Source: Anaerolineae bacterium (lineage in GTDB: Bacteria > Chloroflexota > Anaerolineae > CG2-30-64-16). From it: 64,000 bases of DNA. The notes beneath the pieces were generated by a model, which saw nothing but the letters and a program-made list of their open reading frames with translations, did no database searches and was not told the origin of the DNA. Positions within the stretch are counted from its first letter, which is position 1; each line of letters begins with the position of its first letter. A program made the translations under genes and the position numbers. Positions 26,069-33,660 of this stretch are shown here, piece after piece. The stretch is taken from assembly GCA_026645775.1 (NCBI GenBank), contig JAPKMS010000040.1, positions 20,406 through 84,405 of the forward strand, given 5' to 3'.

Positions 26069-26839
26069 ATGGGCGTCATCATCGCACTGGCCAACCAGAA
26101 AGGCGGCGTCGGCAAAACGACGTCCACCATTAACCTGGGCGCGGCCCTGGCCGAGCGCGGCCTTCGCGTCCTCGTGGTCGATCTGGATCCCCAGGCCGCA
26201 CTCTCCCACGGGCTCGGCATCCAGGCCGAAGATCTGTCGAATACCATCTACAACCTGCTGGTGGACCCCGACCAGGATGCAGCCAAGGCGCTGCTGCCGG
26301 TGCGCAGCGGGATGGATCTGTTGCCGGCGAATATCGACCTGGCCGCGGCCGAGATCGAGCTGGTGTCCGCGCTCAGCCGAGAGTCGCTTTTGAAGGACGC
26401 GCTGGCGCCGTTGCGGCCGCGTTACGACTTCATCCTGATCGATTGCGGGCCGAATCTGGGGTTGCTGACGCTCAACGCGTTGACCGCGGCCGATGCGGTG
26501 CTGATTCCGTTGCAGTGCGAGTATTTTGCGTTGCGGGCGCTGACGATCCTGCTGAAGACGGTGACGCGCGTGCGCGCCCGGCTGAACCCCAATCTAGAAG
26601 TGGCCGGCATCCTGGGCACGATGTATCAGACGGGCACTCGCCACGCCGAGGAAGTGTTGGGCCAGGCGCGGGCCTTATTTGGCCAACGGGTGTTTGACAT
26701 CTACATCAAAAAAAGCATCCGGTTTGCCGAGGCGTCGGCCGTCGGCAAGTCGCTGTTGGAATATGCCCCCGATCACGAGGGCGCTCATGCTTATCGAGCT
26801 CTTGCGGAGGTGATCATCCATGACTACAGCCAGAAGTAG
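26069..26839 (+). CDS. ParA/Soj-family P-loop ATPase
   Basis: Deviant Walker A KGGVGKTT and full ParA-fold similarity. Confidence 0.85.
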   Translation: MGVIIALANQKGGVGKTTSTINLGAALAERGLRVLVVDLDPQAALSHGLGIQAEDLSNTIYNLLVDPDQDAAKALLPVRSGMDLLPANIDLAAAEIELVSALSRESLLKDALAPLRPRYDFILIDCGPNLGLLTLNALTAADAVLIPLQCEYFALRALTILLKTVTRVRARLNPNLEVAGILGTMYQTGTRHAEEVLGQARALFGQRVFDIYIKKSIRFAEASAVGKSLLEYAPDHEGAHAYRALAEVIIHDYSQK

Positions 26840-28166
26840 CGCGGGAAATTCGAGTTTGGCCCGCGGTCGCGGGTTGGATGCACTGTTCGAGAGCACGGCG
26901 AGCCCGGTGGCAACCGGTTCGCACGTGGATGCTGATCTGGCGGCCTTGCTGGATGACGAAGTGTTGGCGGCCACAGTGGGCGCGCCGGATGTGAGCGAGC
27001 CGCCTGTTGCGGCGCCGGCTGCCGCTGCGGCGGCAACGCGAGCGGCCGCAGCCGCGCAGCCGCCCGAAGCCATCGATGTGCCCCCAGCGGCCAGCGAGGC
27101 GCGGCCGGTGACGCCTCCCCAGGCCACGGTCCCGCCCGTCTCCGAGCCAGCGCCGCCGGCCCCCGCGGTTGAAACGCCGCCGCAGTTGCCCACCACCAAG
27201 CGTTTCGGAGCGATCATCATGGAATCTGCCCCCCAGGAAACCCCGCCCGATGTCCAAGTCACGCCCTCTGCGAGCGCTGCCGATGCGCTGGTGCCTGCCA
27301 TGCCGGGGACCCGGAGCGTTATGCCTCCCACTTCGGGTGTTGAAGAGGAGGTGACCCCCTTGCCGTCGGCTGTTGATCGCACCGAAGACCAAAAGGCGAT
27401 TGTCATCTCGCGGCTGGACAAGGTTCTGGATAAAGGCTGGCAACGGGCGCTGCACCAGCAGATCGACGGCCTATACAAACAGGTTGCCACGGAGTTTGCC
27501 AGCCCGCCCGAAAAGGCTGAGCGCGCCCTGTCCATGCTGCGCGAGGCGCGCCAGGTGCTGTTGGACACCCCAGAGGAATATGTGGCGGCTGAATATCGGA
27601 CGATGCAAGTGCGGGCCCTGCTGGATCGGATGCAGGTGAGCCGCAAAAAGGCCGTGGTCTTTGGGCCGCGCATCCTGCTTTACCAGGCGGCCTGGTTGGT
27701 GGTGCTCCTGACGCTGTTGATCTTCGCGGCGCCGCTGACGCAGTGGATCACCCAAGTGGGCAACGTGACTGGGGCAGCGCTGCTGAACCTCTATCCGATC
27801 GTCAACACGATGATTTGGGGCGGGATTGGCGGCATCGTTGGTGCGCTCTACGCACTGTGGTGGCACATCTCGGAGCAGCAAGATTTTGACCCTAACTATC
27901 TGACGTGGTACCTGGTGCAGCCGCTGATGGGGGTGGTGCTGGGCGGCATCATCTTCTTGATCCTGGCCGGCGGGTTCTTGATCTTGCAGGTGGACCTGAC
28001 CGACGACAAGGCTACCCAGGGCGCGCGGCTGCTGCCCTATCTGACGGCTGTGCTCGCGGGGTTCCGCCAGAACTTCGTGTATCAGCAGTTTGATCGCTTG
28101 ATCGCGCTCTTCACGCCATCGCAGCGGAGCGGCAACGGCACAACCGGCGACGGCCCCGCCGCATAA
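26820..28166 (+). CDS. membrane protein with ParB-type N-terminal ParA-interaction motif, Pro/Ala-rich linker and C-terminal TM domain
   Basis: Residues 12-23 are LARGRGLDALF, matching the ParB N-terminal peptide consensus. Residues 55-200 are Pro/Ala-rich. Residues 290-420 hold four or more TM helices. No ParB HTH or CTPase body is present. Confidence 0.5.
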   Translation: MTTARSSAGNSSLARGRGLDALFESTASPVATGSHVDADLAALLDDEVLAATVGAPDVSEPPVAAPAAAAAATRAAAAAQPPEAIDVPPAASEARPVTPPQATVPPVSEPAPPAPAVETPPQLPTTKRFGAIIMESAPQETPPDVQVTPSASAADALVPAMPGTRSVMPPTSGVEEEVTPLPSAVDRTEDQKAIVISRLDKVLDKGWQRALHQQIDGLYKQVATEFASPPEKAERALSMLREARQVLLDTPEEYVAAEYRTMQVRALLDRMQVSRKKAVVFGPRILLYQAAWLVVLLTLLIFAAPLTQWITQVGNVTGAALLNLYPIVNTMIWGGIGGIVGALYALWWHISEQQDFDPNYLTWYLVQPLMGVVLGGIIFLILAGGFLILQVDLTDDKATQGARLLPYLTAVLAGFRQNFVYQQFDRLIALFTPSQRSGNGTTGDGPAA

Positions 28167-28286: not shown

Positions 28287-29570
28287 TCAAGCCTTGATCC
28301 GCTCGATGTGTGCGCCCAGCCCGCGCAGCTTTCTGTCGATCTCCTGGTAGCCGCGATCGATCTGGTCGACGTTGGCGATGCTGCTGGTGCCCTGGGCGGC
28401 CAGGGCCGCGATCAGCAGCGCCATGCCGGCGCGGATGTCGGGGCTGCTCAGCTCGGAGCCGTGCAGCGAGCCGGGGCCGACAATCACCGCGCGGTGCGGG
28501 TCGCAAAGGATGATCTTGGCGCCCATGCCGATCAGTTTGTCCACGAAATAGAGCCGGCTCTCAAACATCTTTTCATGCATCAGCACCGTGCCCTTGGCCT
28601 GGGTGGCGACCACCAGTGCGATGCTCATCAAATCAGCGGGGAACTGCGGCCACGGCGCATCGTCGATCTTCGGCACCGCGCCGCCGATGTCCTCTCGAAT
28701 CGTCAGGTGTTGCTCATCGTCGATCACCAGGATGTCGCCATCCATGTGCATATTGACGCCCAGGCGCTCGGAGAAGATCAGGTTGATCATCCGCATGTGC
28801 TCGGGCACCACGCCGTGGATGCGAATTTCGCCGCGCGTCACCGCCCCCAGACCCATGAAGCTGCCCACCTCGAGATAATCCGGCGAGATGGTGAAGTCAC
28901 CGCCGCCGAGCTTTTCCACGCCGTGGATGATCAGTTTGTTGGAGCCAACCCCCTCGATTTGTGCGCCCCAGCCGACCAGCATCTGGCACAGGTCTTGCAC
29001 GTGCGGCTCGGACGCGGCGTTGCGGATGACGGTGGTGCCCTTGGCCCGCACCGCTGCCATCACGGCGTTTTCGGTTCCAGTGACGCTCATCTCATCCAGC
29101 AGCATATCGGCGCCATGGAGGCTGGCAGCGCGCATGGTGAAATCATGGTGATTGAAATCGATCGTTGTCCCCAGGGCTTCCAGGGCCAGCAGGTGCGTGT
29201 CAACCCGGCGCCGGCCGATGCGATCGCCGCCGGGCAGCGGCAGGATGGCCTGCCCGAACCGGCCCAACATCGGCCCGGCCAGCAGCATGGAGCCGCGGAT
29301 TTGCTGGAACAGCTCGGTTCGCGGCGCGCTGAACCGGGCGTTCTTGGCGCACAAGTGGAGCGTGGCCCCCTCGTCACGCACGGTCACGCCAAATTCGCCC
29401 AGGATTTGCAGCATGGTGCCCACGTCGCCGATGCGCGGCACGTTGTGCAGTGTGACCTCGGCTTCGGTGAGCAGCATGGCCGCCAGGATCGGCAGCGCGG
29501 CGTTCTTGTTGCCGGCCGGGGTGACATCGCCGTTGAGTGGGTGGTTGCCTTCGATGACGAATTTCTCCAT
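28287..29570 (-). CDS. murA: UDP-N-acetylglucosamine 1-carboxyvinyltransferase
   Basis: Full-length MurA similarity. Confidence 0.9.
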
Positions 29571-30406: not shown

Positions 30407-30597
30407 GGCACCTGTGATGCGTGGCGGCTTGCACTTTTGGGTGCGATTCTACCCCAGTCCGCAGTGAGCGTCAACTGCTGTTTTAGCCGCCCCGCGGATT
30501 CGCGGAAGTTGGCCTACCCAAACATTTGTGCTATCCTGGCCGATGTACGAACCTGCTTTGTTTCTGGGAAACGTCGATCTGTGGTAAAATAGATCAG

Positions 30598-31710
30598 ATG
30601 AAATCAAAATTCGTGTCACCCAAGATTGGTGTGATCGACGCTTTGGCGACCGGTTTAGCGCACGCCGCGCGCCGGCCGTGGTTGGTAGCTATCCCAGCAC
30701 TGGTCGACCTGGGGCTGTGGCTGGCGCCGCGACTGTCGGTGAAAGAGCTGCTGCAGCACCTGGGCCTGGTGGTGGAGGGGTTGCTGCGCGCCGGATACTC
30801 CACTGTGCAGGTGGCAGGGCTCGATGAGATGCTGGTCATGTTTCATGAGAGCATCCAACAACTCAGCACATCGGTGAACCTGGCGAATGCTATCGGCGGA
30901 CATTGGCTGGCGCTCCCGAGCGCACTGATGCCGGTGCAGGCCAACCGGTTTACAGTGTTTACCGATGGCATTTTGGCGCCGCTCGGTATCGGGGTGAAGC
31001 TGACCCCTGTGGCGGCCGCGCCCCTGCAATGGGCGCCCATTGAGATCAAGAGCGCCTGGTTGGCTGTGGCGATCGTCGTGGGGTTCTGGCTGGTGGGTCA
31101 TCTGTTGGCGGCGCTCTATCTGCGGGCCGCGGCCAAGGATTGGCTGGGACCCGTCGCTGGCACAGAGGTCGCACCGGCGCGGGCAGCCCGTTGGCAGGGA
31201 CTGCGCGGCCTGTTCGCTCTGACGCTCCGCCTCATCTTCGTGAGCCTGTTGATCGGGGTGGGCGTGAGCCTGCTCTTTACACCGCTGCTGATGGCGACGA
31301 GCATTGCGTCCCTGGTGGGCGGCGCCTTCGCCGAGTTAGCCTTTGCATTGACGGGCGGAATTACGCTCTGGCTGCTGTTGTGGTTTCTGACGTCGGCCTT
31401 CTTTACCAGTGAGGGGGTGCTGCTGGACGGCGTTCCCGTGTTGGGCGCCCTGTTGCAGAGCGCCGCACTGGTGCGCAGCAACGGCGTGCTGACGCTGGGC
31501 CTGGTCGTCGTCGTCAACCTTTTGATGTTGGGTTTTCGTGCGGCCTGGGGGCTGTTGGGTCAGACTCCGGTGACCGTGCTGGCGGCTATCATAGGGAACG
31601 CGTATCTGGCTACCGGGGTGTTACTGGCTGTTTTTGCGTATTACGATGGATTGCGCAAGCACTGGATCATGGTGAACGCGGCGCGATCGACGCCCACGGG
31701 GCAGAGTTAG
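30598..31710 (+). CDS. polytopic membrane protein, unknown function
   Basis: ATG at 30598 (MKSKFVSPKIG). Eight or more hydrophobic segments. Confidence 0.5.
   Translation: MKSKFVSPKIGVIDALATGLAHAARRPWLVAIPALVDLGLWLAPRLSVKELLQHLGLVVEGLLRAGYSTVQVAGLDEMLVMFHESIQQLSTSVNLANAIGGHWLALPSALMPVQANRFTVFTDGILAPLGIGVKLTPVAAAPLQWAPIEIKSAWLAVAIVVGFWLVGHLLAALYLRAAAKDWLGPVAGTEVAPARAARWQGLRGLFALTLRLIFVSLLIGVGVSLLFTPLLMATSIASLVGGAFAELAFALTGGITLWLLLWFLTSAFFTSEGVLLDGVPVLGALLQSAALVRSNGVLTLGLVVVVNLLMLGFRAAWGLLGQTPVTVLAAIIGNAYLATGVLLAVFAYYDGLRKHWIMVNAARSTPTGQS

Positions 31711-33660
<1,950 letters not shown>

Follow-up and report, generated by a model that had tools for sequence, protein, structure and literature searches.

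ParA/MinD ATPases position chromosomes, plasmids, carboxysomes, chemoreceptor arrays and division sites, and it is a working rule of the field that any cargo can plug into such a system via a short N-terminal tag. To our knowledge, the well-studied partners of nucleoid-bound ParA proteins are all DNA-bound or cytoplasmic assemblies. Links between the membrane and chromosomal ParA or ParB-like machinery are provided by HubP (Vibrio), TipN (Caulobacter) and Noc; we know of no ParB-type activating peptide in HubP or TipN, and Noc is a true ParB-domain protein, a ParB paralog, with an amphipathic helix rather than transmembrane (TM) helices. Here we describe, within a 64,000-nucleotide stretch of contig JAPKMS010000040.1 from an Anaerolineae bacterium (the window), a parA gene and an overlapping open reading frame (ORF) for a 448-residue protein, to which we give the name X. 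We propose, with a probability of roughly 0.6, that X is an integral-membrane, ATPase-activating partner (adaptor or cargo) of a chromosomal Soj-type ParA and is co-expressed with it via the overlapping genes. The coupling of the two genes, the architecture of X, its Spo0J-like peptide, the parA-dependent conservation of that peptide and the Soj-type character of the ATPase were all computed here, and the pair consists of the following elements.

26069 to 26839, + strand: parA, for a Soj-type chromosomal ParA ATPase of 256 residues with the deviant Walker A motif KGGVGKT (Pfam AAA_31, 1.8e-59; CbiA).
26806 to 26822, + strand: Shine-Dalgarno sequence GGAGGTGA (26806-26813), 6-nt spacer and ATG of X, read directly within the 3' end of parA.
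26820 to 28166, + strand: X, an integral membrane protein of 448 residues from an unannotated family (ORF; no match in Pfam, NCBIfam, PADLOC or PHROGs).
26862 to 26888, + strand: ParB-type N-terminal peptide R15-F23 (RGRGLDALF), the tag presumed to bind ParA and activate its ATPase (match to Spo0J 1vz0, conservation in orthologs, co-variation with parA).
26913 to 26975, + strand: conserved acidic helix, residues 32-52, (D/E)LAA(L/M)L(D/E)xE (AlphaFold2 helix, alignment).
26982 to 27374, + strand: Pro/Ala-rich disordered linker, residues 55-185 (composition, AlphaFold2).
27375 to 27665, + strand: conserved helical-bundle domain, placed in the cytoplasm, residues 186-282 (confident AlphaFold2 model).
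27666 to 28115, + strand: transmembrane domain (residues 283-432), more conserved than any other part of X (hydropathy, AlphaFold2 helices).

With ParB/Spo0J, X shares the extreme N-terminus, where GLGRGLEALL in Spo0J corresponds to RGRGLDALF in X ahead of a flexible segment, as well as a position directly after a Soj-type parA, which in Caldilineales is the rsmG-parA-[parB] slot; in contrast to ParB, it lacks the CTPase/N-terminal domain, the helix-turn-helix (HTH), the dimerization domain and the GERRxRA box, carries a membrane body instead and cannot bind parS. PomX of Myxococcus xanthus, the partner of PomZ, is similar in layout, with a conserved short peptide of positive charge at the N-terminus, an N-terminal part that is likewise Ala/Pro-rich and unstructured, and a cargo-building C-terminal domain (PMC7993993), but PomX is a cytoplasmic, filament-forming protein whose peptide does not resemble that of ParB and whose ATPase, PomZ, is a dedicated ParA outside the Soj type, whereas X is membrane-embedded and pairs with a chromosomal Soj. 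McdB with McdA (carboxysomes) and TlpT with PpfA (cytoplasmic chemoreceptor clusters) similarly use a charged N-terminal extension to engage a neighbor-encoded, nucleoid-bound ParA-like ATPase (PMC7993993; bioRxiv 10.1101/2022.06.09.495121); these are, however, cytoplasmic cargos served by dedicated ParA paralogs, unlike the integral-membrane X with its ParB-type peptide and Soj ortholog. X has no sequence or fold similarity to HubP, TipN and Noc. It has the class features of ParA/MinD ATPase-activating partners, namely a charged N-terminal peptide, a flexible region and a membrane body, together with genetic linkage to and co-evolution with its cognate ParA. According to a published rule, an ATPase-activating protein can arise when a positively charged N-terminal stretch is joined to a domain that interacts with protein, DNA or membrane (PMC7993993; bioRxiv 10.1101/2022.06.09.495121). 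X is therefore not a new principle; it varies the known tag-plus-domain design by an integral-membrane body and by the use of a chromosomal Soj, probably alongside ParB. An earlier note on this DNA, made from the sequence alone, had stated that no such protein was known, and indeed we found no paper describing the X family or a membrane protein with a ParB-type tag, nor anything relevant on ParB in Anaerolineae or Chloroflexi.

The N-terminal sequence of X resembles that of Spo0J closely. The real N-terminus of Thermus thermophilus Spo0J (PDB 1vz0) reads MSRKPSGLGRGLEALLPK and that of X SSLARGRGLDALFES, and across the core GRGL[E/D]AL[L/F] six of the eight residues are identical and the remaining two conservative; the ParB-type consensus (L)G(R/K)GL-x-AL(L/F) is present as RGRGLDALF (residues 15-23) in X and as MSRKPSGLGRGLEALL in Spo0J 1vz0. 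The first 20 residues of this Spo0J were reported to be enough to activate Soj (Leonard 2005, as cited in PMC7993993), and the window ParA matches the Soj of the same organism (1wcv) at 1.3e-57. The X peptide is the single match to [GA]RGLxAL in the six frames of the 64-kb window, and its longer form LARGRGLDALF lies at residues 13-23, one residue from the span of 12-23 in the earlier note. The positive charges of the peptide are R15 and R17 in the window protein and form a K/R-rich MA[KR]KRAS[LI]KG[RK]G in distant members of the family. RGRGLDALF is nearly invariant in full-length homologs down to 45% identity, which bears out its expected conservation in orthologs; the 163 close homologs, all annotated as hypothetical, come from Anaerolineae or Chloroflexi metagenome-assembled genomes. 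A sequence search with so short a peptide does not retrieve ParB, so that conservation and context have to carry the argument.

To that end, one genome per species was scanned, yielding 80 loci, all from Chloroflexota (Anaerolineales, Caldilineales, Ardenticatenales and Ca. Amarolinea), or 81 with the window, and about 50 of them have a ParA ortholog that runs up to or into the start of X. Among the loci with enough upstream sequence, the ParB-type peptide occurs in 46 of the 49 X genes with parA directly upstream and in only 1 of the 28 without it (Fisher's exact p = 2.4e-16, a value that ignores shared ancestry). The three ParA-linked exceptions comprise two genes with a degenerate G[IV]xALF and one with masked sequence. 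In a tree of the X body, the ParA-less genes fall into about 8-10 separate lineages and the peptide is missing in all of them except L029. About 8-10 times, then, parA was independently lost or unlinked, and in all cases but one the peptide decayed or was deleted although the body of X persisted. The syntenic block ubiE-ubiX-[parA]-X-murA illustrates this at the level of single loci, as parA has been cleanly excised in several lineages, leaving ubiX to abut X, and the X genes concerned are exactly those without an intact peptide. L009-L011 have lost it by deletion, and in L016 (GRGRGPDTLSE) and L021 (RGRDLDAQS) it has decayed, whereas motif 2 and the X body are still there in all of them. Loci L029 and L021 are 87% identical over the body and differ at three of the nine peptide residues (RGRGLDALF versus RGRDLDAQS), whereas the window X and that of L022, at 62% body identity, have peptides identical at nine of nine positions. 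These sister-locus comparisons point to purifying selection on the peptide that is contingent on parA, so that the tie between peptide and adjacent ParA put forward in the earlier note now has strong comparative evidence behind it. In evolutionary terms, the repeated joint loss of gene and tag would also cleanly demonstrate that the N-terminal peptide of ParB acts as a self-contained module for interaction with ParA.

The overlapping gene arrangement is in line with this link. The parA gene and the 448-residue ORF, both found where the earlier note had placed them, share 20 nt, the ATG of X lying inside the 3' end of parA, whose stop codon is at 26837-26839. Together with the Shine-Dalgarno sequence inside parA, which is graded strong, this overlap makes translational coupling of the two genes likely.

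As for the ATPase, the best PDB matches of the window ParA besides the T. thermophilus Soj are the ParA 8ray (8.8e-63), a mycobacterial-type ParA and Helicobacter pylori Soj (6iub, 4e-45), whereas MinD models score far under their cut-offs. A defense-system or phage module was also considered and rejected, as PADLOC and PHROGs gave nothing for X and only P-loop or ParA matches for the ATPase. In the classical gidB-soj-spo0J operon, parB follows rsmG(gidB)-parA, and the order rsmG(gidB)-parA-X in four Caldilineales loci (L069, L072, L075 and L076) suggests that X there occupies the parB slot; the window parA has ubiX upstream rather than rsmG. Judged by these relationships, the window ParA is a standard chromosomal Soj-type protein and not, as the earlier note had it, an orphan of the PpfA/McdA/PomZ kind. 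Across 46 X-linked ParAs, G12, K16 and D40 (Bacillus subtilis Soj numbering) are invariant, position 218 is R or K, and the equivalent of R189 is R in 29 and G in 17; in B. subtilis Soj, R189 and R218 are the conserved arginines for non-specific DNA binding. None of the 46 ends in a C-terminal membrane-targeting helix, their termini being short polar tails such as ...AEVIIHDYSQK. With the Walker A lysine, D40 and R218 kept and the membrane-targeting tail missing, these ParAs should bind DNA rather than membrane.

The remainder of X departs from ParB altogether. X has no Pfam or NCBIfam match and therefore, as the earlier note had claimed, no ParB N-terminal (CTPase), HTH or dimerization domain, and the GERRxRA box (GERR[..]RA) is absent from every frame of the 64-kb window. 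Behind the peptide, the acidic helix at residues 32-52 is modeled by AlphaFold2 with block-mean pLDDT values of ~71 for residues 31-40, ~87 for 41-50 and ~52 beyond residue 50, and contains the invariant L40, A41, L44 and E47; its motif is retained in many ParA-less lineages of the closer clade, which argues that the helix is not ParA-dependent. The Pro/Ala-rich disordered linker noted earlier is indeed present, with 23% Ala, 23% Pro and a net charge of -9 over residues 55-185 and pLDDT below 50 over most of residues 55-174. Linker length and sequence differ among homologs save at the short motifs IDVPP (85-89), KRFGAIIME (127-135) and VMPPxxG (167-173), and these, like (D/E)LAA(L/M)L(D/E)xE, are conserved in a 30-sequence alignment that includes five tag-less members. 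Such ParA-independent motifs within residues 32-185 suggest further binding partners. The TM domain has two strong hydropathy segments (285-303 and 371-389) and two weaker ones (~326-348 and ~404-421), that is, two to four TM helices, so that the four or more of the earlier note was a generous count. Its signature motifs are WGGIGGxxGALYxLWWH, FD, WYxVQPxxG and GFRQNFxY, with W333, G334, G337, G341, Y344, W347, H349, F356, W363, Q367, P368, G371 and G375 invariant. Six Lys/Arg residues immediately ahead of TM1 imply a cytoplasmic N-terminus.

From these features we infer physical binding to ParA, stimulation of its ATPase, the membrane topology and the nature of the cargo, and propose the following mechanism. 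The peptide, within the first ~25 residues, would be tethered to the membrane body by ~170 residues of mostly Pro/Ala-rich disordered leash, could thus reach nucleoid-bound ParA-ATP dimers, and would dock on them in the manner of the Spo0J N-terminus. Docking would stimulate ATP hydrolysis by ParA and thereby couple X, along with the complex built by its helical/TM body, to the ParA-nucleoid system, and ParA would serve as an accessory, using a diffusion-ratchet of the kind that acts on other ParA cargos to place X, or set its spacing, with respect to the nucleoid. Because X is kept after loss of parA and sheds only its tag, the X body is expected to have a ParA-independent core function. A role as cargo, or as adaptor of a cargo, is accordingly more likely for X than one as dedicated ParA regulator, and ParA is most likely an accessory to X positioning. 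On this proposal, the X family would be the first integral membrane protein known with a tag of the ParB sequence type, pairing with the chromosomal Soj and not with a dedicated paralog, and would offer a compact, testable design of luggage tag plus leash. It also raises the questions of how one ParA serves two partners with the same type of tag and of nucleoid-membrane coupling in filamentous Chloroflexota, a group with hardly any cell-biological work to date.

The second partner in question is ParB itself. Searches by tblastn with B. subtilis and T. thermophilus Spo0J, both validated as probes against the PDB, found no ParB-like sequence within 10 kb on either side of X in the 80 loci and none in the 64-kb window even at E < 10, and the window holds no parS with two or fewer mismatches. 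In relatives, by contrast, perfect 16-bp canonical parS palindromes (TGTTTCACGTGAAACA) lie within 10 kb of X in L022, L028 (two sites), L072 and L076, and one-mismatch sites in L069 and L076; the sites are intergenic or near the operon, and about 6e-4 perfect sites would be expected by chance in the 1.2 Mb searched. The two perfect sites of L028, at 19066 and 19151, are ~1.2 kb downstream of gyrB, and this locus has no adjacent parA. Since parS would be expected to disappear where ParB is missing, at least some of these genomes probably encode a canonical ParB at another site. The earlier description of X as an adaptor rather than a ParB stands insofar as X is a non-ParB membrane protein, but is better worded as an adaptor in addition to, or in competition with, ParB; the ground for refutation that it had named, a canonical parB elsewhere paired to this parA, may apply by half, since ParB, though seen neither in the window nor in the 80 loci, is probably present and may or may not still use this ParA.

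Several observations weigh against X as an activating partner of ParA. Judged from the parS sites, ParB probably coexists with X, and this would leave one ParA with two peptide-bearing partners, which is unusual. In the window clade the R189 equivalent is Gly, with an Arg two residues downstream (TGTRH), so that DNA binding by this ParA is assumed. A phmmer search of the N-terminal 54 residues of X against the PDB returned no matches, the query being too short, and no fold or family match gives a lead on the function or cargo of the X body; the AlphaFold2 model of X, a helical bundle plus TM helices, has no significant match in the PDB. The clear exception to the co-variation, L029 (6394-8759), combines an intact RGRGLDALF with an ECF-transporter T component in the place upstream where parA would be, and parA may have been relocated elsewhere in that genome. 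Peptide-like motifs without an adjacent parA are seen in L029, L034/35/41, L062, L085 and L087, which indicates that adjacency is not obligatory.

The best-surviving alternative, a doubtful yet serious rival, is that X is chiefly a regulator or anchor of ParA in ParABS segregation, a membrane-tethered sink that hydrolyzes or captures ParA at the cell periphery or poles, shaping the ParA gradient for ParB-parS or tethering the nucleoid to the membrane. It would then function like TipN, HubP, PopZ or DivIVA, but through a ParB-like activating peptide. Membrane-anchored polar partners of ParA are indeed known in other bacteria, the ParA concerned here is a chromosomal Soj, in Caldilineales in the rsmG-parA slot, canonical parS sites near X in relatives suggest that ParB-parS is probably active, and the ParB-type peptide would put X in competition with ParB for a shared site on ParA. 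On the other hand, a pure ParA regulator would be expected to vanish along with its ATPase, whereas the X body is strongly conserved in the ~8-10 lineages without parA; furthermore, the TM domain is the best-conserved part of the protein, with polar and Gly-rich signatures that are more than an anchor requires.

A bolder extension of the proposed partnership, which we consider unlikely as a whole, is that in Anaerolineae the chromosomal Soj has been captured by X as its primary partner, with the X peptide taken from ParB, the nucleoid ParA gradient spacing a membrane complex along the nucleoid in multicellular filaments, and ParB acting mainly without ParA. X would perhaps have taken over the 5' end of parB and its operon slot, with ParB encoded elsewhere, and the spaced complex might be linked to the septum or to wall synthesis, given the deeply conserved X-murA neighborhood. 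If true, it would add a hitherto unknown class of membrane positioning guided by the nucleoid.

Distinctly unlikely is a full replacement of ParB by X, in which no canonical ParB would remain and ParA-X would be the sole ParA system, unconnected to parS. The position of X in the parB slot after rsmG-parA, the failure to find a ParB-like sequence around X in the 80 loci or in the window at relaxed thresholds, and the window without parS would all fit, but the perfect and one-mismatch parS sites of the relatives argue otherwise, and X has no DNA-binding domain. Finally, a coincidental likeness to the ParB peptide, with the motif serving a non-ParA role such as membrane insertion or binding of another partner and the adjacency being mere synteny, is compatible with a motif of ~9 residues that sequence search alone does not detect and with the clear ParA-independence of other short conserved motifs in the same disordered region, but is very unlikely in view of the co-variation with parA across many independent lineages, which neighboring motifs do not follow, of family variation confined to the ParB type and of the parA-X overlap with its internal Shine-Dalgarno sequence.

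Beyond these loci, the X family is large and unannotated and merits a Pfam entry. An exhaustive HMMER search with the family profile recovered at least 1,154 representatives at the 50% identity level (E <= 1e-3), 215 of them with E <= 1e-30, and ten long or distant members searched against Pfam contained no domain at all and hence no ParB-TM fusion. Distant ParA-linked members carry the peptide variants VGRGV[DE]AFF, RASIKG[RKM]G[AV][DE]ILFG and ILGRGVDALFS, and the wider family often starts with MA[KR]KRAS[LI]KG[RK]Gx[DE][IL]LFG, at times duplicated; family-wide, the variation stays within G[RK]G-x-x-[AIL]-[LF]-[FL]. In the distant member P0166, ParA overlaps the start of X; in P0258, with a body identity to X of ~29%, ParA precedes and murA follows the gene; and L088/L089, at ~29% body identity, keep the pairing with variant peptides of the same type. 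In P0181 and P0168 the peptide is present without an adjacent ParA. Taken together, pairing at such low identity and the members without adjacent ParA indicate that the ParA-X association is ancient but not obligatory. P0168 (L087:979-4647) has a duplicated peptide, KGRGPELFGRGIDLLFG, and is located beside rpmH-yidD-yidC-jag, a classical origin-proximal gene cluster. A small gene for Trypco1 (PF19493, trypsin-co-occurring domain 1) lies directly 3' of X in two other distant members (L085:8234-8587 and L086:10007-10354).

The neighbors of parA-X in the window, whose G+C content is ~64%, are housekeeping genes. Upstream are an AIR-synthase-like gene (- strand), an ECF S component, an ABC ATPase, a permease, ubiE and ubiX; downstream are murA (-), a SAM hydroxide adenosyltransferase gene (-), a membrane protein without assignment and, 5 kb from the pair, gyrB. 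A scan of the operon for promoters and terminators gave nothing above chance. A look-up of the window X protein led to short contigs alone (3-6 kb), which added nothing to its genome context. The 332-residue ORF at 26675-27673 (- strand) is no gene but a shadow ORF of G+C-rich coding sequence, lying antisense within the Pro/Ala-rich stretch of X. The murA gene (28287-29570, -) is convergent with X and is its immediate or near downstream neighbor even at ~30% X identity, as also in L039, L041, L052, L062, L065, L067, L078 and L088; this neighborhood may reflect nothing more than synteny, or else point to a connection with wall synthesis. The membrane protein between the SAM hydroxide adenosyltransferase gene and gyrB (30526-31710, + strand) is polytopic, has 394 residues and no Pfam match, and keeps the same position in about 20 related loci. 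The gyrB product of L028 (15519-17912) comprises 797 residues versus 642 in the window (31732-33660), owing to a ~155-residue insertion after GDSAGG (CLAGETRV...VVHN|SAKQGRD) that is intein-like in appearance.

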